Of a stretch of 64,000 nucleotides of DNA, positions 1 through 64,000 are shown piece by piece. The notes under the pieces are model-generated. The model saw only the letters and a list, made by a program, of their open reading frames with translations, did no database searches and had not been told where the DNA came from. Source of the DNA: a virus. The DNA lies in the IMG/VR virus record IMGVR_UViG_3300025466_001905, positions 1-64,000 of that record, one strand, 5' to 3'. The position numbers and the translations under genes were made by a program. How positions within the stretch are numbered: position 1 is the stretch's first letter; each line of letters starts with the position of its first letter.

Positions 1-2
1 TT

Positions 3-124
3 TTTGAAGTTAGTGTAGCAGTTGAGTCTGCCATAAAACACGGTTCGCCTGTAGCACGGTACTCAGCCCGACATAAAGAACAGTTACTGACCACTAATAA
101 ACATCTTGTAAAGATGCCTTCAAA
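3..124 (+). ncRNA. candidate structured non-coding RNA upstream of the tRNA cluster
   Basis: Nested helices: TTTGAAG(3-9)/CTTCAAA(118-124), TTAGTG(10-15)/CACTAA(92-97), GTTGAGT(21-27)/ACTCAGC(61-67), a GG-TTCG-CC hairpin and a CATCTT/AAGATG hairpin. No ORF, and it may extend beyond the window edge. Confidence 0.4.
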
Positions 125-133
125 TCTTTTTAC

Positions 134-209
134 GCTCGGTTCATCTAGAGGCCCAGGATAGTGCCCTTTCACGGCATTCACACCGGTTCGAATCCGGTAC
201 CGAGTACCA
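134..209 (+). tRNA. tRNA-Glu(TTC)
   Basis: Cloverleaf, anticodon arm GTGCC-CT-TTC-AC-GGCAT, GGTTCGAATCC T-arm, encoded CCA. Confidence 0.95.
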
Positions 210-216
210 TTTTTGT

Positions 217-293
217 TGGGGATTCGCCAAGTTGGTTAAGGCACTGGATTTTGATTCCAGCATGCATAGGTTCGAATCCTATATCCCCTACCA
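217..293 (+). tRNA. tRNA-Gln(TTG)
   Basis: Anticodon arm CTGGA-TT-TTG-AT-TCCAG, T-arm GGTTCGAATCC, CCA end, unpaired 1:72. Confidence 0.95.
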
Positions 294-312
294 ATGTAAT
301 TTAGGAAAACAT

Positions 313-933
313 ATGACAGCAGTTTTGATCAGTTATCCACCAGCTGCTGGTGGTAATCATTTGAGAAATCTAATCACAGTAGCCAGCAATTATGTCAGTG
401 ATACCAGCTTCAATGAAAATATCATGCAACAGTATTTTTCAAGCGGAAAAATCATGGTGCACGGTCAGGATATCGGTCAGGATGCTATCGCAAACAATAT
501 CAACTCATTCAAGTTGCACCGAAGTGCAATGGAACATGAACAGAATATAGTTTATTTTGGGCACTTTGCTGAGATTCTTTCTCAAAGAGATATTTTGCTT
601 ACATTACCAAATAAAAAATTTATTTTGATATCGCCTGACACACAAGATTGCATGAAAATATGGTTGGCGAGAGCAAAAAAATTAGGCATAGCACCTTTAC
701 TAGGATATTATGCAGGAGAGCAGATTTTTTTGTACGAACCGGTTATTTACTATGATGTACTCAAAACAAAAAAAACCAATGTGATGAATATATCAATTTA
801 TGAATGGTTTGCCGAAGACATTTCTCCAGTATTGGATAGATTAGAATTTTTTTTACAGGCTAATTTTGATAGAGAACTATGTCAAAGGTTGCATCAGATT
901 TGGTATAGTCGTAACAAACCTGATGTTTTATAG
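313..933 (+). CDS. hypothetical protein, sulfotransferase-like P-loop family (paralogue of 42970-43659 and 47332-47991)
   Basis: Start moved to ATG 313 (AGGA SD) because the track start at 232 lies inside tRNA-Gln. N-terminal motif LISYPPAAGGNHL. Confidence 0.55.
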   Translation: MTAVLISYPPAAGGNHLRNLITVASNYVSDTSFNENIMQQYFSSGKIMVHGQDIGQDAIANNINSFKLHRSAMEHEQNIVYFGHFAEILSQRDILLTLPNKKFILISPDTQDCMKIWLARAKKLGIAPLLGYYAGEQIFLYEPVIYYDVLKTKKTNVMNISIYEWFAEDISPVLDRLEFFLQANFDRELCQRLHQIWYSRNKPDVL

Positions 934-953
934 CATGGCAAAAATTAATTTAT

Positions 954-1028
954 CGCAGGGTAGAGAAGCGGCAACTCACCGGGCTCATAACCCGGAGATC
1001 ACAGGTTCGAATCCTGTCCCTGCAACCA
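954..1028 (+). tRNA. initiator tRNA-fMet(CAT)
   Basis: C1:A72 mismatch, three G-C pairs in the anticodon stem (CCGGG-CTCATAA-CCCGG), CCA end. Confidence 0.93.
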
Positions 1029-1089
1029 AGTAATGTTGTCAACCAAACACCGAGTCAAGGCGTTGTATAATTACACTCAGGAGATTGTA

Positions 1090-1221
1090 ATGTCACAATA
1101 TGATATCATTGCCCAGGTTAGAGAACTTGTTGAAAGAAACTGCAAATCTTGTGAAATTGCTACTCGGTTGCATCTTGATATTTCTGCAGTAAATCAGGTG
1201 ATCACAATGTTAAAGTTATAA
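1090..1221 (+). CDS. small putative helix-turn-helix protein
   Basis: AGGAG SD before ATG 1090. SCEIATRLHLDISAVNQVI resembles an HTH. Confidence 0.5.
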   Translation: MSQYDIIAQVRELVERNCKSCEIATRLHLDISAVNQVITMLKL

Positions 1222-1228
1222 GTATTAA

Positions 1229-1429
1229 TTACTTGTTGTCATGTTGAGTATCATTATCCTGCTTGTTTTCATTGTCAGCAGGCTCACACAACATAGGATT
1301 TACTTTGAAATCACGGTTGGTGCTCCAGTGTTCGGTCTGAATATATGGCACGTTGCCAAATGCACTTAACAAAAGTTTATAGCTATAATAATCGTTGTCG
1401 TCCATACAATATTTAACCTTTTTGGTCAT
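1229..1429 (-). CDS. hypothetical protein
   Basis: 66-aa ORF with AGGAG upstream on the - strand. Confidence 0.45.
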   Translation of the reverse strand: MTKKVKYCMDDNDYYSYKLLLSAFGNVPYIQTEHWSTNRDFKVNPMLCEPADNENKQDNDTQHDNK

Positions 1430-1481
1430 TATGGTAGCAGGGCACTCCTACTATCAATAATGTAATTGTAATATATGAGTA

Positions 1482-1489
1482 TATAAATA
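1482..1489 (+). promoter_or_regulatory. T4-like late promoter TATAAATA
   Basis: Exact TATAAATA 18 nt before the glycosyltransferase start. Confidence 0.55.
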
Positions 1490-1507
1490 CTGGCCCAAGG
1501 ATCCAAT

Positions 1508-2578
1508 ATGGTAAAAGTTTTGTTTATACTCAAACGTCGTGAAGACTATGATGCAATAGTACACAGTCATGTGGGTCTGAGCACAGGGTTGTATAACAGT
1601 GCTAGCTTTATGAACGATATGTTGAATGATGCCGGCATAGACAGTGTGTTAGAAGTGGCCATAGACAACAATTGCATAGATAGATTGGTCACAAAACATC
1701 AACCTACTCATGTAATCATTGAAGCTCTTTGGGTAGTTCCCACAAAATTTACCATACTGCAACGGCTTCATCCCAAAGTAAAGTGGATCATCAGATTACA
1801 CAGCGAAATGCCTTTTTTGGCCGGCGAAAGCAATGCCATGGACTGGATCGGCGACTATTCAGAATTTCACAGTGTTTACCTGGGAGTTAATGCACCCAGG
1901 ATGCTGAGAGAGTGTCAAACTTATTTGAGTGCCATGCATCCTGGTAGAATCTGGAACAATGGTAGAATTATCTACATGCCCAATTACTACCCGCAAAAGT
2001 TTACAAAAAAGAAACTAGACAAAAGCAAAGACACAGTAGATATTGCGTGTTTTGGTGCAGTACGCCCTTTGAAAAATCACATGGTACAGGCCATTGCAGC
2101 CATTGAGTTCGCTCAAAATATTGGCAAAAAATTGCGATTTCATATCAATGCAGGCAGAATTGAAATGAACGGTGGGCCAGTGATCAACAATCTCAAAGGT
2201 CTATTTCAGCAGTTGTCCGGCAGAGATTTTGAATTGATCAATCATCAATGGCGGCCACGTGACCAATTTTTAGAATTGTGCAGTCAAATGGATATTGGTC
2301 TGCAAGTGAGCTTTAGTGAAACTTTTAATATTGTAGGTGCAGATCTAATCAGTCAGGGAGTTCCCATAGTGGGCAGTGTAGAGATACCCTGGGCAGCTAC
2401 CAAATGGTGTGCTGATCCCACAGACAGCACAGACATTGCACAGTGTCTGGCCAGTGCCTATCGTTGGTCAAGAACCAATGTTCGTTACAATCAAATATCA
2501 TTGAAAAAATATACCAATCACACCAAAGATATATGGACTAAATACTTTTATGAACAAACACACAGTAAAAGCTCATAA
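1508..2578 (+). CDS. glycosyltransferase, GT-B fold (GT4-like)
   Basis: FGAVRPLKN and SFSETFNIVGADLISQGVPIVGS, the GT4 nucleotide-sugar-binding motif. Confidence 0.8.
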   Translation: MVKVLFILKRREDYDAIVHSHVGLSTGLYNSASFMNDMLNDAGIDSVLEVAIDNNCIDRLVTKHQPTHVIIEALWVVPTKFTILQRLHPKVKWIIRLHSEMPFLAGESNAMDWIGDYSEFHSVYLGVNAPRMLRECQTYLSAMHPGRIWNNGRIIYMPNYYPQKFTKKKLDKSKDTVDIACFGAVRPLKNHMVQAIAAIEFAQNIGKKLRFHINAGRIEMNGGPVINNLKGLFQQLSGRDFELINHQWRPRDQFLELCSQMDIGLQVSFSETFNIVGADLISQGVPIVGSVEIPWAATKWCADPTDSTDIAQCLASAYRWSRTNVRYNQISLKKYTNHTKDIWTKYFYEQTHSKSS

Positions 2579-2759
2579 ATGGATAGACGGTATTTTGCAT
2601 ACTGTGGAACATTACTTTGATAACTTGACCGAAGCAATAAGTTTTTCCAGTGCAGCCGACGCGCACACTACAAAAGTCTACAATAATCATGGTAATCTTG
2701 TGCATGTGACTAATGTACAAAATATACGCGGTGATCATCTCATGGTCGGATACGCATAA
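2550..2759 (+). CDS. hypothetical protein
   Basis: 69-aa ORF overlapping the end of the upstream gene. Confidence 0.55.
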   Translation: MNKHTVKAHKWIDGILHTVEHYFDNLTEAISFSSAADAHTTKVYNNHGNLVHVTNVQNIRGDHLMVGYA

Positions 2760-2779
2760 GTCTAGCACAATTTTCCTAC

Positions 2780-3319
2780 ATGAACATCATGACCCTGAGC
2801 TGCCAGGCTCAAGACTGCAATGGTTTTCCAAAAGTCACAGTGCTCTTAGACAACAATATTTTATTTGAAGCAGACATCTCTGAGTCAAAATTTGACCTAT
2901 CAATTCCATTGGATCATAACACCTCAACCAGGTGCTTGCAACTTGTACGTCATGACAAAACTGATCGGAATATATTGTTAGACTCCAATGGACATATAAT
3001 CAAAGATCAAAGTGTGGAAATTCTTCAAATCAAAATAGATCAGGTGCTTGTACCGCAATTTTTTATCTCGTCTCACTGTCAGTTTGAATTTGGCGATCAG
3101 TGTCATCCAGGCAGTTGTTTTATTGGACCCAATGGAGTTTGGTCCTTGAGATTTCAAACTCCTATTGTACAGTATATTTTAGATCAAAAAATTTTGCATG
3201 AATCTCAATACAATCAAGACTATCAATTTCCCTGGAGTTATAAATTGGGCCCTGACAGTGTCAAAAATATCAGTTCCAAAATTGATTCATTGATTGAAAA
3301 AATATCCATATCATTATGA
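2780..3319 (+). CDS. hypothetical beta-rich protein coupled to the radical SAM gene
   Basis: 179-aa ORF, ATGA overlap with 3316. Confidence 0.7.
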   Translation: MNIMTLSCQAQDCNGFPKVTVLLDNNILFEADISESKFDLSIPLDHNTSTRCLQLVRHDKTDRNILLDSNGHIIKDQSVEILQIKIDQVLVPQFFISSHCQFEFGDQCHPGSCFIGPNGVWSLRFQTPIVQYILDQKILHESQYNQDYQFPWSYKLGPDSVKNISSKIDSLIEKISISL

Positions 3320-4815
3320 ATGACTTTGTATCTTGTGTGGCCATTGATATAATAAACTACGACAAGCCACCTGCTTCACTGGCATTTCTGGCAGGAGTGT
3401 GTGAGGCAACTCTTCTTGATTATCAATGTTTTAGTTTGAATTCTGAATTCTTAGACATCATGTCCATGGCTGAATACAATTTGGTGTATACCAAGCTCAA
3501 ACAATCTGCCATGGAGGATATTCCCAAACCAGCCATTGACAGCATTGATCGCATAATAAATCAAATTAAACAGTGCAATACAACAATTGTGGCGGTGTCT
3601 ATATTTTCTTACCTGCAGTATCCTCTCGCTGAAGTATTTTTAAAAAAATTAAAGGCGTTGTTGCCAAACGTCACTGTCATAGCCGGCGGCCCAGGTATTC
3701 AAGCCAATCATTCATCCAATGGTACCATTGGCAAAAATTTATTAGACCATGATTTGATAGATTATTACTGCCTTGGCGAAGGAGACGAAGCTTTGGTTTT
3801 GTTCTTTCAAGGCAACAGAAATATACTGGGCATAAATGGAAAACAAAACAAGTACGAAACTTGGGTTCCACAAATCGACAATTTGGATTCAAAATATGTG
3901 ATTCCTAGCTATAAAAAAATACCTTTGAAAAATTATCAAAACTTAGAAAATAAAAAATCCACAGTTTTTTCACTGAGTACCAGTAGGGGGTGTGTGAGAG
4001 ATTGTGCATTTTGTGACGTGGGCAAGTCATGGCCCAAATTTAGATTTAGAAAAGGGTCAGGTGTTGCTCAAGAAATATTACAACATCATACAGATGTGGG
4101 TGCAACAAATTTTACCATAGTAGACTCATTGATCAATGGAAGTTTAAAATCTTTTCGTGAATTCAATCAAGAAATGATCAAACTCAAAAAAGAGTATCCA
4201 AGTTTGAATGACTTCTCATACAATGGCATGTTCATTGTGCGCGATCGACACACGCACAATGAAGAATTTTTCCGTCTTATGAAGGAAGCTGGGTGCGAAA
4301 GTTTGGCCATTGGTGTAGAAACAGGCAGTGATCGTTTGAGATTTGAGATGAATAAAAAATTTACCAATCAAGATCTGGATTGGCATCTAGAAATGAGCCA
4401 GCGCTACGGGATCAGAAACAATTTTTTAATGTTTGTGGGTTATCCTACTGAAACTGCAGATGACTTTGCTCAAACTCTAAGCATGCTGGAAAGATATCAA
4501 AAATATCTAATAGATGATACCATAATAGGTATCAACCATGCTGGAGTTTTCAGTATTCTGCCAGACACACCTGTGTTTGACAACAAAGACAATATTGGCA
4601 TCACTGTCAATGAACAATTCCATACAGACAGTAACATTTCCAAATTACATTGGTTTAATCACAATAACCCAGATCTCACTGTCAAAGAACGAATATTGAG
4701 AGATTTGAAATTTAGGAAAAAAGCCATAGAACTACGTTATCCAGTACCATACGTTGAACGCTATTTGGAATATTTAAAACACATTGATAAAGATCTATTT
4801 GTGTTGTCAGATTGA
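3316..4815 (+). CDS. B12-binding-domain radical SAM enzyme (class B methyltransferase-like)
   Basis: N-terminal cobalamin-type domain (VIAGGP, GEGDE), SRGCVRDCAFC CxxxCxxC, IGVETGS, FVGYPTET. Confidence 0.88.
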   Translation: MNDFVSCVAIDIINYDKPPASLAFLAGVCEATLLDYQCFSLNSEFLDIMSMAEYNLVYTKLKQSAMEDIPKPAIDSIDRIINQIKQCNTTIVAVSIFSYLQYPLAEVFLKKLKALLPNVTVIAGGPGIQANHSSNGTIGKNLLDHDLIDYYCLGEGDEALVLFFQGNRNILGINGKQNKYETWVPQIDNLDSKYVIPSYKKIPLKNYQNLENKKSTVFSLSTSRGCVRDCAFCDVGKSWPKFRFRKGSGVAQEILQHHTDVGATNFTIVDSLINGSLKSFREFNQEMIKLKKEYPSLNDFSYNGMFIVRDRHTHNEEFFRLMKEAGCESLAIGVETGSDRLRFEMNKKFTNQDLDWHLEMSQRYGIRNNFLMFVGYPTETADDFAQTLSMLERYQKYLIDDTIIGINHAGVFSILPDTPVFDNKDNIGITVNEQFHTDSNISKLHWFNHNNPDLTVKERILRDLKFRKKAIELRYPVPYVERYLEYLKHIDKDLFVLSD

Positions 4816-4816
4816 C

Positions 4817-4845
4817 TTGACCAACAATGCAAAATAATGTATAAT
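4817..4845 (+). promoter_or_regulatory. sigma70-type promoter for tRNA-Gly and rpoZ
   Basis: TTGACC-17 nt-TATAAT. Confidence 0.75.
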
Positions 4846-4854
4846 TACATATTT

Positions 4855-4928
4855 GCGGGGTTCGTATAATGGTAATACCCTAGCCTTCCAAGCTAGAGCT
4901 GACAGTTCGATTCTGTTACCCCGCTCCA
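4855..4928 (+). tRNA. tRNA-Gly(TCC)
   Basis: Anticodon arm CTAGC-CT-TCC-AA-GCTAG, U73, CCA. Confidence 0.95.
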
Positions 4929-4943
4929 TTCTAAAGGAAATTT

Positions 4944-5174
4944 ATGCATCGTACAAAATTAAGCCGTGGTACCGAAATTGACACTGACCTCTGTGTAAAA
5001 AATGCCGGAGAAAACAGATACATGCTGGTGATTATGGCCGCTGCAAGAGCAAGAGAAATTTCAAGACAACATCGTGCCAGTGAAAATCCTGCACATATCT
5101 ATCCTGTAGTCAAGGCCTTATTGGAATTTCAAACAGGTGAAATCAGCATTGATGCGGCAACAAAAATTATGTAA
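4944..5174 (+). CDS. rpoZ: RNA polymerase omega subunit homologue
   Basis: GENRYMLVIMAAARAREI and YPVVKALLEFQTGEI match the omega signatures NR(F/Y)xLVxxAAxRARxI and xxVxxALxExxxGxI. 76 aa, AAGGA SD. Confidence 0.82.
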   Translation: MHRTKLSRGTEIDTDLCVKNAGENRYMLVIMAAARAREISRQHRASENPAHIYPVVKALLEFQTGEISIDAATKIM

Positions 5175-5179
5175 GTAAA

Positions 5180-5255
5180 CTCCGTGTGGCGTAATCTGGT
5201 AGCGTACTTGGTTTGGGACCAAGCGGTCAAGGTTCAAATCCTTGCATGGAGACCA
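5180..5255 (+). tRNA. tRNA-Pro(TGG)
   Basis: Anticodon arm CTTGG-TT-TGG-GA-CCAAG, CCA. Confidence 0.93.
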
Positions 5256-5259
5256 ATCA

Positions 5260-5333
5260 GGGGATGTAGTTAAATGGGATAACGGTAGCTTTGCAAGCTT
5301 CAATTGAGAGTTCGATTCTCTCCTTCTCCACCA
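5260..5333 (+). tRNA. tRNA-Ala(TGC)
   Basis: G3:U70 identity pair, anticodon TGC, CCA. Confidence 0.92.
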
Positions 5334-5345
5334 TAAAGGAATATC

Positions 5346-5549
5346 ATGGATATAGATCAAGCAAGTAATTTTTTAGCGTGTACTATTTTGTTGGGTGCAG
5401 GTGTCACAGTTGTTGTTGCATTTGTGTTGTTAATCAACAACTTATGCAGTCGTTATTGGAAGCCATTGGCTCTTCCGGAATATCTTAATCCAGCATTGTC
5501 TGGCAGATTTGCAGAACCTCACGAAGTTCCTACCGACAATAAAAAATAA
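5346..5549 (+). CDS. small single-pass membrane protein
   Basis: AAGGA SD and hydrophobic stretch FLACTILLGAGVTVVVAFVLLI. Confidence 0.65.
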   Translation: MDIDQASNFLACTILLGAGVTVVVAFVLLINNLCSRYWKPLALPEYLNPALSGRFAEPHEVPTDNKK

Positions 5550-5553
5550 ACCA

Positions 5554-5643
5554 GGAGCGGTGGCCGAACGGTAAGGCAGCGGATTGCTAATCCGTACAAC
5601 GCTTAATCGCGTTGACTGGGTTCGACTCCCAGTCGCTCCGCCA
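5554..5643 (+). tRNA. tRNA-Ser(GCT)
   Basis: Anticodon arm GCGGA-TT-GCT-AA-TCCGT, long variable arm, G73, CCA. Confidence 0.95.
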
Positions 5644-5697
5644 AGTTGTCAATTTGACTAAATACTATTGCATACTCTGCAATAACATCAGAAAGTC

Positions 5698-6177
5698 ATG
5701 ATGCAAAAAATTGACATTGAACGTGTAAAAAAATACATCAATGCCCAAAGTCCACAAACTCGAATCTACATCGGTGTTGACTCTGAAAGAATAAAAATCA
5801 ATAGAATCTGGTATGCAGACTATACCGCTGCTATAGTGGTTCATATTGACGGAAATCATGGTTGCAAATTGTTTGGCGAAGTGACTAGAGAACGAGATTT
5901 TGATCAACGTTCCAATCGTCCCAATACCCGTCTTATGACCGAAGTTTACAAGGTCAGTGAGTTATACCTTAAACTGGCTGAAGTTTTGGAAAATAGATTG
6001 GTCGAAGTACATTTGGATATTAATCCGCAAGATCAGTACGCCAGTTCAAACATAGTAAGAGAAGCCATTGGATATATTCGAGGTACGTGCAATGTGGTTC
6101 CATTGATCAAACCAAATGCATTTGCCGCAAGTTATGCCGCAGATAGGTTCAAAGGACTACGAATTGCAAATGGATAG
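5698..6177 (+). CDS. RNase H-like YkuK (DUF458) family protein
   Basis: IYIGVDS, RLMTEV, VEVHLDIN, IKPNAFAASYAADR motifs. Confidence 0.8.
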   Translation: MMQKIDIERVKKYINAQSPQTRIYIGVDSERIKINRIWYADYTAAIVVHIDGNHGCKLFGEVTRERDFDQRSNRPNTRLMTEVYKVSELYLKLAEVLENRLVEVHLDINPQDQYASSNIVREAIGYIRGTCNVVPLIKPNAFAASYAADRFKGLRIANG

Positions 6178-6206
6178 TTGACACATAATTCTTTTTGTGC
6201 TACAAT
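6178..6206 (+). promoter_or_regulatory. sigma70-type promoter
   Basis: TTGACA-17 nt-TACAAT. Confidence 0.75.
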
Positions 6207-6239
6207 TGGTACATCTTAATTTTTTTTAGAGATTGTATC

Positions 6240-8450
6240 ATGTACAAAAAACTACTCAGTCTGGGTTTAGCAATTATTTTGGTAGCCTGTGGTGATGGCA
6301 ACAACACCGTAGAATCAACACCAATTTTTGCTAGAGAATCCGTTATTACTGCATCTGTTGGTAATACTGATAGTCTTTCAGCCGAAGCCTTGGCCTTTGC
6401 AAAATCTCCTAGTATTGCTCGATATGCCACACAAAGAGATGCCAATACTACTCCATTTATGAGTGATATATTGGGCAAAGCCCAGATCAATGGTGTCAGT
6501 ATTGATCAGTTGTTTGCTTGGGGAGAAGCAAACTTTCCCAAATTGTTAACCAGTCATGAACTAAATGGTTATTGGAACGGATATACTTACAGATACTATC
6601 CAGCCAGTAATACCTACGTTGGCATAGATACCAACAATGTAGTTTGGATTATGGGCCCTGACAGTACCAATGGTGTCTTGGTCAAATTAGCACCAGCAAG
6701 TGATTACGTTGGTCAAGTTAATGCCTGGATCGCTGCAGTGACCGCACCAAAAGTCAGCACAGGACTGGTAGGACTGTTGAATAGCATGAGTACAGGGTCT
6801 ACTTATGTTTCTCAGCCCACCGTTACTGTGTCCGTTGGCGGCGGAGGAGGGACAGCATCAACCCCAGTTGTACCGCCGGTAGTGGTTAGCCCTCCTGTTG
6901 CTACACCAGCGGCCGCTCCTGTGGCGACCCCTGTTATTCCAGCTCCAGTTATTGTACCAACACCAGTGGTCACTCCGGTTGTGACACCACCTGTTGTTAC
7001 ACCAGTGGTGGCGCCAGTTATTGTACCAGCACCAGTGGTTACTCCGGTTGTGACACCACCTGTGGCAAACGTGTTTAGTTGGACACCCACAGTAACAATA
7101 ACAACAAAATTTTTCGACCTACTAGGAGCATGGTGGAATGGCAATATGTTTTTTGCAGATCTAAACGGTGATGGCATAGAAGAAATTATTATTGCAGGCC
7201 GCATGAGTCAGCCTGCTACTGCAGCAACTTGGCAATTCACCAGAATGCATATACTGGGATGGAATACAGGATCATTGGCCATGGAAGACAGCCAATGGTT
7301 TACTAATAACAACGATAATCTTATTTTTGGTACTGAGCCCAGTATAAAATTTGCGGATTTTAACGGTGATGGACGCAGAGATATATGGATTGCACCCAGT
7401 GCTGACATGATGCTATTTGGACCAGGAACGGTGTATATCAATCAGGGCAATAATCAACTCAAACGATCTGACCTGAATATAGGACAAATCTGGGCACACG
7501 ATAGTGCAGTGGGAGATTTTAACAAAGACGGCAAAGATGATATTATTGTAGTGGGGCTCAATGGTAACCAAGCCATTGCACTGGGTCAGTCCGACGGAAC
7601 ATTTAAAATCACCACTGGCTCAACAGGACTGAGTGCAGCTGGTATGGCCGCTGGTGATTTTTTAGGCAATGGCACTACCACAGTAATACTCACTGATGCA
7701 TTTATGGAAGGCAATCAAACCAATGGCCTGTATCAGGTCATGCTCAGTGGTGGAGTTTCAGGAGGCAGCGGTAGTGTGGGATCAAGCAGTGCATCTGGAT
7801 CTGGTTCTTTTCAAGGCGGTGGTGCATTGATGATTCCGGCTAATCCTGTAGCTACACTGACACTGAACCGTATCAGTAAATTGCCACCCAATAGATTTTA
7901 TCTACCAAAATGGTCAGGATATTCAGTATTGACTCCTGGGCACATGCCCAGCACAGTGAGAGCAGTGCCCATTGATTTCAATCGCGATGGGCAGTTGGAT
8001 GTTGTGTTACTGACCATGGCTCAAAACGGCACTATTTATTCTGAAGTACAATTTTTGCAAAACAACGGTGGCGGTAATTTTACAGATGTTACCGACACAG
8101 TTTTACAAAATTACAACAGTTTGCACACCCAGTCCAGCTATAGTCCTAGATTGATTGATATCAACAGGGATGGTGTGTTAGATATTTGGTTGAGCAACTC
8201 AGATGGTGATGGCGCAGAAGACAGCAATGTAGTTTTAATGGGTAATGCATCTGGAAACTACACCGCTACCTATGCAAGTGCCTTTACTGCAGATAGAACA
8301 TTTGTTGGTGGTAATCCTGCTCCAGTGCAGGCAGTTCGCGGCCCAGATCAAAACTTATGGTTGTTGACTCTGAACTGGTCAATGTCATCATTGAATGTGC
8401 AAATCAATGCCAAGAAAATTGGACTGAATCTGTCTAGTTTGCCAAATTAA
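6240..8450 (+). CDS. lipoprotein with a Pro/Val-rich linker and FG-GAP/VCBS-like beta-propeller
   Basis: Signal peptide MYKKLLSLGLAIILVA-C with lipobox. Repeats DLNGDG, DFNGDG, DFNKDG, DFNRDG, DINRDG. Confidence 0.8.
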   Translation: MYKKLLSLGLAIILVACGDGNNTVESTPIFARESVITASVGNTDSLSAEALAFAKSPSIARYATQRDANTTPFMSDILGKAQINGVSIDQLFAWGEANFPKLLTSHELNGYWNGYTYRYYPASNTYVGIDTNNVVWIMGPDSTNGVLVKLAPASDYVGQVNAWIAAVTAPKVSTGLVGLLNSMSTGSTYVSQPTVTVSVGGGGGTASTPVVPPVVVSPPVATPAAAPVATPVIPAPVIVPTPVVTPVVTPPVVTPVVAPVIVPAPVVTPVVTPPVANVFSWTPTVTITTKFFDLLGAWWNGNMFFADLNGDGIEEIIIAGRMSQPATAATWQFTRMHILGWNTGSLAMEDSQWFTNNNDNLIFGTEPSIKFADFNGDGRRDIWIAPSADMMLFGPGTVYINQGNNQLKRSDLNIGQIWAHDSAVGDFNKDGKDDIIVVGLNGNQAIALGQSDGTFKITTGSTGLSAAGMAAGDFLGNGTTTVILTDAFMEGNQTNGLYQVMLSGGVSGGSGSVGSSSASGSGSFQGGGALMIPANPVATLTLNRISKLPPNRFYLPKWSGYSVLTPGHMPSTVRAVPIDFNRDGQLDVVLLTMAQNGTIYSEVQFLQNNGGGNFTDVTDTVLQNYNSLHTQSSYSPRLIDINRDGVLDIWLSNSDGDGAEDSNVVLMGNASGNYTATYASAFTADRTFVGGNPAPVQAVRGPDQNLWLLTLNWSMSSLNVQINAKKIGLNLSSLPN
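6945..7063 (+). repeat. 50-bp direct repeat (2 mismatches) in the linker
   Basis: CCAGTTATTGTACCA(A/G)CACCAGTGGT(C/T)ACTCCGGTTGTGACACCACCTGT at 6945-6994 and 7014-7063. Confidence 0.85.
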
Positions 8451-8465
8451 CTTAAAAAAGCATGG

Positions 8466-8494
8466 CTGACTCAAATCTTAGATTTGTGTATAAT
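8466..8494 (+). promoter_or_regulatory. sigma70-type promoter
   Basis: CTGACT-17 nt-TATAAT, then AAGGAG SD and ATG 8513. Confidence 0.6.
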
Positions 8495-8512
8495 TACAAT
8501 AAGGAGTCAATT

Positions 8513-9118
8513 ATGCCATCAGTGTTTTTAGTGTCAGACACACACTTTGGTCATGCCGGAGTATGTAGGTTCACTCGCAATGACGGAGTGACCAAATTGC
8601 GTCCATGGGACAATGCAGATGAAATGGACGAAGCAATGGTCAAAGCGTGGAACGAACGGGTACGGCCCACTGACAAGGTTTATCACTTGGGCGATGTTGT
8701 TATCAATCGTCGAGCGTTAAGTATCATGTCGAGATTAAACGGCGACAAGGTTTTGATTCGTGGTAATCACGATATCTTTAAGGACGAGGACTATCGTGCT
8801 CACTTTAGAGAACTCAGAGCCTATCACGTTATGAACGGTATGATCCTTAGTCATATTCCTGTGCACGAAGCAAGTTTGGGAAGGTTTGGTGTTAACATCC
8901 ACGGACACTTACATGCAAATCGTGTAAAAAAAGCTCGCGGAGTCGATGCTAGAACTGGTGAAGTTTTATACAGCGATGAAAACGATGTTCGTTACCATTG
9001 TGTTTGTGTAGAACAAACTCCAAACTTTGCTCCTATCCTGTTTGAAGATGTTATGCGTAACATTGAAGCAGAAGGCGGCAGTGTGGGATTCAGGAACGGC
9101 AACGGCCCTACCATGTAG
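8513..9118 (+). CDS. calcineurin-like metallophosphoesterase
   Basis: DTHFGH, HLGD, GNHD, HGHLH motifs. Start placed at the SD-preceded ATG 8513. Confidence 0.9.
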   Translation: MPSVFLVSDTHFGHAGVCRFTRNDGVTKLRPWDNADEMDEAMVKAWNERVRPTDKVYHLGDVVINRRALSIMSRLNGDKVLIRGNHDIFKDEDYRAHFRELRAYHVMNGMILSHIPVHEASLGRFGVNIHGHLHANRVKKARGVDARTGEVLYSDENDVRYHCVCVEQTPNFAPILFEDVMRNIEAEGGSVGFRNGNGPTM

Positions 9119-9864: not shown

Positions 9865-11505
9865 ATGATTAAAAAAATTGCAATACTTGGCGGAGGATTT
9901 GCTGGCTGGTACACTGCAAGATCACTGCAACATTGTTTGCCTCAGGTTGAAATTGTGATCATTGACAGCTCACAGTATCCTACCATTGGAGTTGGCGAAG
10001 TTTTGGGCTTTGATGCACCTCTTAATTTTAACCGATTGCTTGGGCTAGATGACGATCAAGAAATCATGGCCGAAACTGGCGCAATTTATAAATTTGGTGT
10101 TCGAGGTATTAATTTTTACAAAGACAACTCACAGGTGGCCTGGGGCAAATTCCCTAATCTCAAAGTCAGTAGTCTTGTGAAATTTTACAATGGATTTGAT
10201 TATCCAGATTTTCAAGAGCCCTGGAATAAGTTGCCCGGAGACATTGGATTGTTTCCGGCTTGGTTGAGTATGTATAGCTCAAGCAAAACCTACGACGACA
10301 TGGTCATTGAAACCAGTGAACAAAATCATTTTTTAACCAATCCAGTAGCCCCATTTGATCGCAATAACAAACTGGTACTGAGAGAAAAGCAAGGATTCGC
10401 CTATCATATTGATGCAGAAAAAACCAGTGTGTTTTTGAAAAATCTTGTGTTAAGAAACAACGGCGACCAAAGAGTGACCTATATTACCAGTACCATGATT
10501 GATATTGCATGGAAAGATTCTGATCAAATTGATCACTTGATACTGGAAAATGGTAATAGGATTTCAGCTGATCTATTCATTGATGCATCTGGTTTACAAA
10601 AAGCCATTATGTCACGCAGCAACAATAAAAGTTGGAAATATCAAGGCGACGAATACTGCAATGCGGCCTGGGTTTTTCCGTCGGCATACACCAATCCAGA
10701 CCAAGAAATTATGGGTGCTAGCGAATTTCACGGCGAAGATTGGGGGTGGCGATTTTTGGTCAGACTGTATCATCGCATAGGCAATGGATACGTTTTCAAT
10801 GCCAACATGGTAGACCCTGCAGTGCCACTGGCCAGATTGCAAGCTGTAGTAGGACCTACTGCACTGGCCGAGCCACGACTAATAAAATGGAATCCAGGGC
10901 AGTACACCCAACCCTGGCAGGGAAATTTGCTGCCATTGGGCATGAGTGCAGTGTTTGTAGATCCGTTTGATGCGCCTACCTTTGAAGGGCATAGTCGTGC
11001 TCTAGAAGATCTTATTGATATAGTTAAAAAACAAGAACAAATAAGCGATCCTCAAAAGCAGTTCAATCACCTGAGAAGTTTGACCAGAGAAGAACGCGAT
11101 TTGAGATTGGATCTTACCTTTGGCATGAGTCAACGCAGTGGCCCTTTTTGGGATTCACGGCGCGAAATGGCTCGTAGACACAATTATCTTGACAAGATTA
11201 AAGCCATTGTGTTAGAACAACGCAAAGATTTAGAAGCCAGACTGAATTGGCATTGGCAACACCAATATGCAAGAACATGCATGGCCTCAAGTGTTGATAT
11301 GAGTACATGGGATTTTCCTCAACTGACATCACAAGATCGAGCTATGGCAGATGCATTTTTTGTTTACAATCGTGCTAGAAACCAATACATTGAAACGCAA
11401 CCTTGGCCCAATTACTCCCAGTGGTTGCGGCATAATCGTTTCAGTGGCTTGACTAATTCTCAAGTGTTACAAAAACTAAATCCATCATTATGTTTAAAAA
11501 ATTAA
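9865..11505 (+). CDS. flavin-dependent tryptophan-halogenase-like enzyme
   Basis: GGGFAG FAD motif, IGVGE, AIYKFG (catalytic Lys position), FIDASG, GWRFLV..RIGNGYVF (variant of WxWxIP). Confidence 0.85.
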   Translation: MIKKIAILGGGFAGWYTARSLQHCLPQVEIVIIDSSQYPTIGVGEVLGFDAPLNFNRLLGLDDDQEIMAETGAIYKFGVRGINFYKDNSQVAWGKFPNLKVSSLVKFYNGFDYPDFQEPWNKLPGDIGLFPAWLSMYSSSKTYDDMVIETSEQNHFLTNPVAPFDRNNKLVLREKQGFAYHIDAEKTSVFLKNLVLRNNGDQRVTYITSTMIDIAWKDSDQIDHLILENGNRISADLFIDASGLQKAIMSRSNNKSWKYQGDEYCNAAWVFPSAYTNPDQEIMGASEFHGEDWGWRFLVRLYHRIGNGYVFNANMVDPAVPLARLQAVVGPTALAEPRLIKWNPGQYTQPWQGNLLPLGMSAVFVDPFDAPTFEGHSRALEDLIDIVKKQEQISDPQKQFNHLRSLTREERDLRLDLTFGMSQRSGPFWDSRREMARRHNYLDKIKAIVLEQRKDLEARLNWHWQHQYARTCMASSVDMSTWDFPQLTSQDRAMADAFFVYNRARNQYIETQPWPNYSQWLRHNRFSGLTNSQVLQKLNPSLCLKN

Positions 11506-62072: not shown

Positions 62073-64000
62073 TTATAGACCACGTAGGAATCTTGCTGAT
62101 GGAGTATCGGTTTCTTGCAGCGGTTTTCCATTGCTGGCAGTTCCAACACCGGGTGCGTACCAAGTTACACCTCTACGAACCAAAATAGTCACTTCTGAAC
62201 CAATGTCTGGGGCAAGTGTAAATTCAACCGTGACAGGATTATCTGCAGTTATCACATAGCCGGTGGTTTGCAATTCACCACCGACATATACTTCAACAGT
62301 TTGATTTCTAATAGAATCAGGCTCTTGAGAAATATCAAGATTAGCAGCCACAAACGTGGTTGTGGTACCGTCGGCAATGATACTATCTGACACAATGTAA
62401 TTTTGATATTCTTTTGGTAACAAATTTCCAGGTCCCATGTTGTATACTGCACTGCCCACTGCATGTGATGCAGCTGCTGTACCAGCAGTGCCTCTTAACA
62501 AACTGCTGACTGTGTTGTCTGTGGTATTTCTCACACGGTACATGATTCTTTCACCATCTATGGTCAGTGCTCCCCAAATATTATCTGCTAGGTTAGGCTC
62601 AACCAGTGCGTTGGCATCAGTGACATAAATTATGTCAGCAGTGGCAGTAAGTGGTTGTGCCACCAAAGTAGTGGCATTGGGTGTGATTCTATAAGTGGCT
62701 TGTACGCCACGCATGTCTTGAAATATACGAAATGCCATGGCTTCTGGTACAACATATTGTGTGAAACTGGTAATCACTACCACATCAGTTGATCCAATGA
62801 TAGGACCAGTGATAGTTATACTTGACTTGTTGACTGTGTAACCTTGTCCATTGAATACCCATTGGCCATTCAAAGTCACCAAGATTCGTTCTGGATTGGT
62901 TATAACATTTCCGGTATCAAACGTATTGCCTTGAGAGGTAGGCCCTTGCCACAACTGTGTAAGCAATCTTTGTTCAGTGGTATCATTCCAGGTTATAATT
63001 TCAATGATATCTCCTGCTTGCAAACTGATACCTGCACTGGGTTGAAATACCAACTGCGAACCTATCACATAATACTGTGCATTTGTTCTCACCGATACCA
63101 ATATCACTGCTCCTGCATTGGCAGGATTTGACAGCGTAATCGTACGTGGGTTGACTCCGTCCCATGCATTCACAACATAATCAGTGTTTTGAATCAGTAA
63201 TCTGTTGTTTTGGTACACAGCAACATCAAGATTATTTACTAGTGCAGGACTATATCCTCCGTTTTGAGGCAAATCATATGTGGTCTGAGAACCATCACTG
63301 ACATAATCGACTCCGGCAGCTGGGCGTGCCCTGGCACCATTGATAGAAATCACAATGTTTACTGGATTGGTACCTTGTAAACTGTTGGTCAAACTGTAGG
63401 TCAAAATTGACGGATCTGCTACCACAATGGTTTGGAAAACTGGCAAACTCCAACTGTGTGTTGGGCCGCTTGGGGCATAGCCAAGACAGGTCAAGTTTAT
63501 TCTGTCACTGTCTCCGTATGTGGTGGTAAAAGTTATTTTTGTTTCACGATCGGAATAAGAAGCATAATTGTAATCAGTTCCGGCCAATAACGGTCCTTGC
63601 TCACCGTTGTAGATTACAAATCCACTGATAGCACTGAAAGGAAAAGATACTATTATGGAATTACCGATAGTTGACCCCAAGTAGGTGTTATTCAACAGCT
63701 GATTGCCACCGCCGGTGGCCACAACTGCAACTTGAATAATATCGCCATCGCTAACGCCCTGTGTTAAACTAAAAGTGTAATTGACCCAATCATAGGAATC
63801 AGGTTCTACACCGAGCCCAGTTGTGATGTTCCAGGTAAGCACAACCATGGGATAGGGCAATAACTGACCAAAGTATGCTGTTGGATTGGCAATATTATAG
63901 GTATATCTCAGAGAGTATATAGGGAATCCAAATCCTTGTCCCAACCAATCTGCCCCTGGAGTTGTGTATACTCTAAAATCTAAAGTATCAAATTCTGCGC
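62073..64000 (-). CDS. large virion structural protein (baseplate wedge-like), 5'-truncated by the window edge
   Basis: Frame is open to position 64000 (AEFDTLDFRVYTTPG...). Repeated beta modules DG..TT(Y/F), V..NG, DY.V, and LLRGTAGT. Confidence 0.7.
   Translation of the reverse strand, partial: AEFDTLDFRVYTTPGADWLGQGFGFPIYSLRYTYNIANPTAYFGQLLPYPMVVLTWNITTGLGVEPDSYDWVNYTFSLTQGVSDGDIIQVAVVATGGGNQLLNNTYLGSTIGNSIIVSFPFSAISGFVIYNGEQGPLLAGTDYNYASYSDRETKITFTTTYGDSDRINLTCLGYAPSGPTHSWSLPVFQTIVVADPSILTYSLTNSLQGTNPVNIVISINGARARPAAGVDYVSDGSQTTYDLPQNGGYSPALVNNLDVAVYQNNRLLIQNTDYVVNAWDGVNPRTITLSNPANAGAVILVSVRTNAQYYVIGSQLVFQPSAGISLQAGDIIEIITWNDTTEQRLLTQLWQGPTSQGNTFDTGNVITNPERILVTLNGQWVFNGQGYTVNKSSITITGPIIGSTDVVVITSFTQYVVPEAMAFRIFQDMRGVQATYRITPNATTLVAQPLTATADIIYVTDANALVEPNLADNIWGALTIDGERIMYRVRNTTDNTVSSLLRGTAGTAAASHAVGSAVYNMGPGNLLPKEYQNYIVSDSIIADGTTTTFVAANLDISQEPDSIRNQTVEVYVGGELQTTGYVITADNPVTVEFTLAPDIGSEVTILVRRGVTWYAPGVGTASNGKPLQETDTPSARFLRGL

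Follow-up and report, generated by a model that had tools for sequence, protein, structure and literature searches.

A virus-encoded homologue of the RNA polymerase omega subunit with a family-specific N-terminus in a phage tRNA array

Results

Genes and features of the locus

The window, by which we mean the whole 64,000-nucleotide stretch of DNA analysed here, covers the initial 64 kb of an IMG/VR virus record of 78,157 bases, whose CheckV completeness of 23% implies a genome of about 340 kb. It contains 10 tRNA genes, and tRNA genes were the only matches when its first 12 kb were compared with GenBank phages, among which no near relative was found. The region of interest comprises the following features, listed by position:

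4817..4845, plus strand: σ70-type promoter-like site TTGACC-N17-TATAAT, 9 nt upstream of tRNA-Gly
4855..4928, plus strand: tRNA-Gly (UCC), predicted by ARAGORN
4933..4938, plus strand: Shine-Dalgarno-like element AAAGGA, 5 nt ahead of the ATG
4944..5174, plus strand: omega (RpoZ/Rpb6-like) gene, 76 aa, supported by Pfam PF01192, an AF2 model, structural matches and dN/dS
4962..4970, plus strand: codons for Ser7-Arg8-Gly9, a family-specific motif that stands where proteobacterial omegas have Met-Ala-Arg
5180..5255, plus strand: tRNA-Pro (UGG), beginning 5 nt past the omega stop codon
5260..5333, plus strand: tRNA-Ala (UGC), same array
5346..5549, plus strand: hydrophobic ORF, 67 aa, within the same tRNA array, with 77-86% identity in L003, L006, L007 and L008
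5554..5643, plus strand: tRNA-Ser (GCU), same array

A preliminary description of this DNA had placed an RpoZ-like ORF between tRNA-Gly and tRNA-Pro, downstream of a near-consensus σ70 promoter. The position of the ORF was confirmed: it starts 15 nt after tRNA-Gly(UCC) and stops 5 nt before tRNA-Pro(UGG). Its start codon is fixed by an in-frame TAA located four codons 5′ of the ATG, by the tRNA end 15 nt 5′ and by AAAGGA 5 nt 5′, and hence the N-terminal extension described below is real. A Shine-Dalgarno element (AAAGG or AAAAGG) is kept in all eight aligned relatives. The promoter was recovered as a promoter-like site which agrees with the consensus at 11 of 12 positions and is joint best within the first 9 kb (1-9000), a region in which the total count of sites of this kind is not above chance. 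Two close relatives (L003 and L005) have TTGACA-N17-TA(C/T)AAT upstream of tRNA-Gly as well, and in more distant relatives another tRNA, instead of a promoter-like site, precedes the tRNA-Gly position. No terminator-like sites were predicted between 4817 and 5643.

The hydrophobic ORF at 5346-5549 (+), flanked by tRNA-Ala and tRNA-Ser, adds another protein gene to the tRNA array. The immediate protein-coding neighbour upstream of omega encodes a B12-binding radical SAM enzyme (3316-4815, +). Downstream of the tRNA block lies a gene for an RNase H-like protein (PF04308, phrog_11311; 5698-6177, +) that is syntenic in close relatives only.

Omega has a long-standing association with the phage tRNA array

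The association of omega with tRNA genes extends well beyond the window. A tRNA on the same strand and at most 300 nt away was present at 61 of 65 distinct viral loci from IMG/VR, and at 42 of the 65 omega is flanked by tRNAs on either side; an upstream tRNA is usually 14-60 nt away and a downstream one 1-10 nt. Because omega sits so close to the tRNA, many database gene calls of relatives open with a translated tRNA. The tRNA-Gly(UCC) also precedes omega in seven other loci (L003, L005, L010, L011, L028, L038 and L042), and the flanking pairs vary by sublineage (Gly/Pro, Arg/Val, Met/Arg, Met/Cys, Trp/Met). Omega has thus long travelled with the tRNA genes of these phages, and presumably it shares one precursor transcript with them. 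A protein gene set so tightly between tRNAs raises the question of how translation of the mRNA and processing of the tRNAs proceed on one precursor.

A tRNA-Ile(UAU) of unusual length, 91-92 nt, was observed in L004 (5174-5265), L005 and L009 (534-624). A tRNA-Ile(UAU) is located directly upstream of omega in L015, L022, L026, L047 and L061.

The ORF encodes a true homologue of omega

The window protein matched the Pfam family RNA_pol_Rpb6 (PF01192) over residues 23-69 with 34.5 bits (E 2e-8) against a curated cut-off of 26, and a genome-wide search of the record returned the same match. With the NCBIfam rpoZ equivalog model TIGR00690 it scored 21.8 bits, just below the cut-off of 23.6, so that calling it an rpoZ equivalog without qualification would not be appropriate. 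A PHROGs search gave no family for the protein (best match E 0.21).

When a profile of 48 family members was run against the PDB, only omega chains were found down to E 2e-3. The best-ranking matches were the omegas of Vibrio (1e-12), E. coli (3e-11), Pseudomonas (2e-10), Xanthomonas (2e-9), Francisella (1e-8) and Caulobacter (4e-8), followed by that of Bacillus (8e-5), a ranking which indicates that the family is of proteobacterial type. An AlphaFold2 (AF2) model of the window protein (mean pLDDT 83.7, pTM 0.71) pointed in the same direction. Foldseek placed omega chains at ranks 1-47 among the best 50, and the best 50 VIA-align matches were all omega chains, headed by that of F. tularensis (Z 8.7, rmsd 1.8 Å, 65 aligned residues). 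The omegas of E. coli, Vibrio and Pseudomonas reached Z 6-7; a Z below 8 is by itself weak for a small helical protein, and the best 50 rows contain no other family. Thus, both the profile and the structural comparison bore out the assignment to omega made in the preliminary description.

Two motifs that face β′ in cellular omegas are preserved in the viral family: NR[FY]DLVLIAAxRAREI aligns with E. coli N15-Q29, and ALLEIQ with A50-I54. With respect to four relatives, at 26-60% of synonymous sites differing, dN/dS was 0.02-0.19, which argues for a functional, working gene. A spurious ORF in a tRNA spacer was ruled out by this ratio together with the Pfam score. We conclude that the ORF encodes a true omega/Rpb6 homologue.

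The omega type is confined to a group of viruses

In IMG/VR, a locus search built on a 10-sequence alignment identified 478 contigs which encode a relative of the window omega. Apart from two truncated calls, the 25 relatives returned by a word-indexed protein search (48-99% identity) are 76-80 aa long; an exhaustive protein search gave 94 clusters at 50% identity, and profile scores within the family ranged from about 36 to 123 bits. The ESM Atlas clusters nearest to the window omega are 71-88% viral, and JGI automatic annotation named two relatives 'subunit K/omega'.

Three omega-bearing records are near-complete, with sizes of 345, 356 and 383 kb and completeness values of 94, 96 and 100%, respectively. 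A major capsid gene of the T4 gp23 type (E ~1e-80) is present in all three and in a 168-kb fragment. It was found neither in the window's own 78-kb record (23% complete) nor in five further fragments; since gp23 lies more than 90 kb from omega in the complete genomes, its absence from the fragments is uninformative. The window phage is tied to the group by the shared omega-tRNA arrangement, by a phosphoesterase that is 84-93% identical, and by a similar implied genome size. Within the three genomes (94-100% complete) there was no match to Rpb1_2 (β′ catalytic domain), Rpb2_6 (β domain 6) or σ70 region 2; the search used Pfam models, by which a strongly diverged phage polymerase might go unnoticed. 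The T4-type giant phages of the omega group thus seem to lack an RNA polymerase, which makes the host RNA polymerase the likely partner of the phage omega.

The phosphoesterase just mentioned is a metallophosphoesterase of 218 aa (Pfam Metallophos_2, phrog_547) encoded at 8462-9118 (+). Of 87 viral loci with omega, 70 carry it at 84-93% identity and at a distance of 3-9 kb from the omega gene. In the loci that share it omega is only about 50% identical, and its conservation across this divergent phage group is unusually strong.

With the window protein, tblastn gave no match to GenBank phages. A second family member gave weak matches only (E about 3e-3, 33-42% identity): those in annotated records fell on rpoZ/omega genes, carried by two contigs of Salmonella enterica and by two 'Acinetobacter phage' records of 240 kb, and we read all of these genes as cellular-type rpoZ, and the remaining ones fell in unannotated records. 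A pattern scan of 185,579 species genomes found ordinary gammaproteobacterial rpoZ as best matches (37-48% identity). Across 301 sampled Pseudomonadota genomes the score of the family profile did not exceed about 55 bits, and the uniform scores (E roughly 1e-14 to 1e-5 where matched) singled out no donor or host class. The viral omega type was absent from the GenBank phage records and the bacterial genomes searched. In a quick maximum-likelihood tree, which rests on a short alignment and a cellular sample from one phylum, a single long branch with an SH-aLRT support of 99 separated 65 viral from 28 cellular omegas. Taken together, these comparisons place the window omega in a virus-only omega clade. 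Bacterial contamination was ruled out by the viral distribution and by the absence of the type among the cellular omegas examined.

DNA of the window phage turned up in many metagenome runs from fresh water and lakes, most of which date from 2017 and may stem from one campaign; none of the runs listed is an RNA run.

A conserved Ser-Arg-Gly segment takes the place of Met-Ala-Arg

In a profile alignment to E. coli omega, Ile12 of the window protein corresponds to Val4, which equates Gly9 with Met1, Thr10 with Ala2 and Glu11 with Arg3 and leaves eight extra residues at the N-terminus. This alignment bears out the extension of about eight residues, and the Thr-Glu-Ile at the positions of Ala2-Arg3-Val4, that had been proposed previously. 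In the structural alignment, residues 8-10 of the model fall on E. coli residue 2.

The 65 viral sequences share an N-terminal pattern. Following Met and four to six variable residues, Ser and Arg are found in 65 of 65 and Gly in 60; then come Pro or Thr (60/65), any residue, Ile, Val or Leu (65/65), Asp (62/65) and Thr (60/65), and finally Glu or Asp (57/65), any residue, Cys (65/65) and Val. The leader ahead of Ser-Arg-Gly is thus 5-7 residues long. The column matching E. coli Arg3 holds E, T, G, D, S, L or Q among the residues listed. By contrast, all 110 cellular Pseudomonadota omegas that we extracted from genomes of the 185,579-species scan and of the 301-genome sample start with Met-Ala-Arg, a start seen in none of the 65 viral proteins, and the viral-type N-terminus occurred in none of the 110 cellular ones. 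A PDB search with the N-terminal 27 residues alone gave no match.

The protein had initially been described as lacking the N-terminus that belongs to ppGpp site 1, and a survey of phage homologues for loss of the Met-Ala-Arg motif had been suggested. Such a survey supports this description insofar as Met-Ala-Arg is absent throughout the viral family. However, the segment is not merely lost but is replaced by Ser-Arg-Gly-[Pro/Thr]-x-Ile-Asp-Thr, the best-conserved stretch of the viral omega, in which Ser and Arg are invariant. That the most conserved segment occupies the place of the canonical start argues for a new or altered function there rather than for simple loss.

Discussion

Relation to ppGpp site 1

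In E. coli RNA polymerase, site 1 grips the phosphates of ppGpp through omega residues 2-5 and through R417 and K615 of β′ (PMC7676912), and two studies count omega residues 2-5 as part of this site (PMC7676912; PMC10191844). The second of them, a cryo-EM analysis of 2023, describes the contacts to omega Ala2, Arg3 and Val4 as being made through main-chain groups (PMC10191844), and thus an exchange of side chains is in itself no evidence that ppGpp binding is lost; the altered phage sequence could still bind the alarmone. In the phage omega the leader removes the free chain end, and in the window phage an acidic residue occupies the Arg3 position. The invariant Arg located two to three residues earlier could equally well serve as a phosphate contact or as a plug of the pocket; it could even strengthen phosphate binding, so that any effect may go in either direction. 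An effect of the phage omega on the ppGpp response is plausible, provided that the host RNA polymerase has a site 1.

The physiological role of site 1 is still debated, with initiation on one side and elongation plus repair on the other. The site was reported to be dispensable for the stringent response and to mediate ppGpp effects on elongation, backtracking and transcription-coupled repair (PMC10191844), and its effects in E. coli are modest (PMC7676912; PMC10191844). Since site 1 acts on elongation and backtracking (PMC10191844), the benefit to be expected for the phage, if the site is altered, would be a ppGpp-insensitive elongation rather than relief of stringent control at tRNA promoters. 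The link proposed previously, whereby a blunted stringent response would keep tRNA initiation high, is weak in view of the reported dispensability of site 1 for that response (PMC10191844).

Genes of two families with links to ppGpp or to the secondary channel of the polymerase were observed in the near-complete genomes. A MazG-like short protein is encoded in all three (G001 303051-303281, G002 293504-293737, G003 9911-10078), and a DksA/TraR-type zinc finger in one (G002 261361-261465).

A model for the function of phage omega and its alternatives

We propose, with a probability of roughly 45%, that the phage omega is made along with the tRNAs, joins the core of the host polymerase and remodels the β′/omega pocket, probably changing the response to ppGpp. 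According to this model the gene would be transcribed with the tRNA array, in the window phage from the σ70-type promoter. With the two β′-clamping helices kept, the protein would most likely assemble onto the host core and either replace the host omega or add to it. Its leader and the invariant Ser-Arg followed by Gly would then fill the spot of the Met-Ala-Arg that helps to hold ppGpp, the likeliest consequence being a changed β′/omega pocket. A polymerase carrying the phage omega may respond differently to ppGpp, and the most probable gain would be that, in hosts short of nutrients, the elongating enzyme escapes the slowing and backtracking which ppGpp induces. We infer the binding to host β′, the exchange of subunits and any effect on ppGpp; a swap of the phage omega onto the host polymerase is likely. 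It is tempting to go further and to speculate, more tentatively, that T4-type giant phages replace, throughout an entire lineage, a core subunit of the host polymerase by their own, and that the invariant Ser-Arg-Gly N-terminus creates a new regulatory pocket on the enzyme. Such a pocket might abolish or invert the sensing of the alarmone at site 1 or give it another target, or it might serve to recruit a phage factor. If true, this would be the first virus to reprogram a cellular RNA polymerase by subunit replacement and not by modification or add-on factors.

The strong conservation of the N-terminus fits a dedicated macromolecular partner no less well than the loss of a ligand site. The phage omega might accordingly join the host polymerase and offer its Ser-Arg-Gly N-terminus as a handle to a phage transcription factor, so that solely those enzymes which contain the phage subunit would be directed to phage middle or late promoters; its purpose would then not lie with ppGpp. 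T4-type phages redirect the host polymerase with several small proteins, and GafA, the activator of the virus-like gene transfer agent RcGTA, contacts omega (PMC9638019). We nevertheless regard such a handle as rather unlikely because no candidate partner gene consistently adjoins omega: its neighbours are tRNAs, and the sole widely shared one, the phosphoesterase, is 3-9 kb off. It is similarly doubtful that the phage simply supplies an assembly and stability factor, which would keep β′ folded and the polymerase intact after host expression stops and whose N-terminus would stem from an unsampled donor. This idea draws on the established role of omega as a β′ chaperone (PMC5811629), on the conserved core helices, and on the many copies of host housekeeping genes carried by giant phages, of which the 10 tRNAs in the window are an example. 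However, the invariance of Ser-Arg in sequences that are only about 40-50% identical elsewhere is not what neutral drift would produce, a donor with the viral-type N-terminus is not represented among the 110 cellular omegas, and a shortage of omega is not evident in E. coli, where its levels change little with growth conditions (PMC7676912).

Two further possibilities appear very improbable to us. Very divergent, split β and β′ subunits exist in some giant phages (cited in PMC12619734), and the omega studied here might belong to such a phage-encoded multisubunit polymerase too divergent to detect. Against this stand the three genomes of 94-100% completeness that lack any Rpb1_2 or Rpb2_6 match, a capsid of the T4 type, which is that of a group using the host polymerase, and an omega closest to cellular omegas of proteobacteria. 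Moreover, to our knowledge no omega is part of the phage multisubunit polymerases known so far. Alternatively, the protein might act off the polymerase as a decoy or inhibitor, for example by titrating a host protein that recognises omega, or a defence sensor. It is small, virus-specific and presumably highly expressed with the tRNAs, and phages do target enzymes of the stringent response, as exemplified by T7 Gp8 acting against RelA and SpoT (PMC13483052). Yet retention of the full omega fold and of the β′-contact motifs is most simply explained by binding to β′.

Comparison with known systems

The phage omega shares its fold, its core motifs and a similar folded length with the RpoZ proteins of E. 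coli, Vibrio, Pseudomonas and Francisella, and it has kept a Cys at the position of Cys9 in omegas of the MARITVEDC type. It differs from proteobacterial RpoZ in being virus-encoded and only 33-43% identical over residues 17-68, in having a leader of 5-7 residues plus Ser-Arg-Gly in place of Met-Ala-Arg, and in lacking the acidic C-terminal tail. Furthermore, the phage gene is located in a tRNA array, whereas the cellular gene lies next to spoT.

With the remodelling of host polymerase by T4-type phages through Alt/ModA, AsiA, MotA, gp33, gp55 and RpbA, the omega group has in common the T4-type capsid, the apparent absence of an own polymerase and the host core as likely target. Expression of the phage omega would likewise start from a σ70-like promoter. 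Those proteins, however, modify the polymerase or add to it, whereas the phage omega would substitute a homologue of a core subunit. Large eukaryotic DNA viruses such as poxviruses and giant viruses encode members of the Rpb6/omega superfamily as well. Theirs serve the multisubunit polymerase of the virus itself, in contrast to the situation described here, where viral β and β′ are not detectable and the sequence is of bacterial type.

No case of a phage-encoded omega or of the replacement of a core subunit was described in the literature that we searched for it, and a comparative study of 224 jumbo-phage genomes mentions omega nowhere. Phages are known to modify, inhibit or decorate the host RNA polymerase; a replacement core subunit encoded by a phage is absent from the literature searched. 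Conservation of omega in hundreds of viral contigs of an abundant freshwater lineage points to strong selection. The phage omega represents a natural variant at exactly those residues which build ppGpp site 1, and with its 76 residues and its resemblance to gammaproteobacterial omega it is directly testable in E. coli.

A very long open frame in the window

At the far end of the window an open frame on the minus strand (62073-64000) continues into L002 (2-12259). It comprises more than 640 codons in the window and 4,086 in the remainder of the record, corresponding to about 4,700 aa, and adjoins tail-fibre-like genes.
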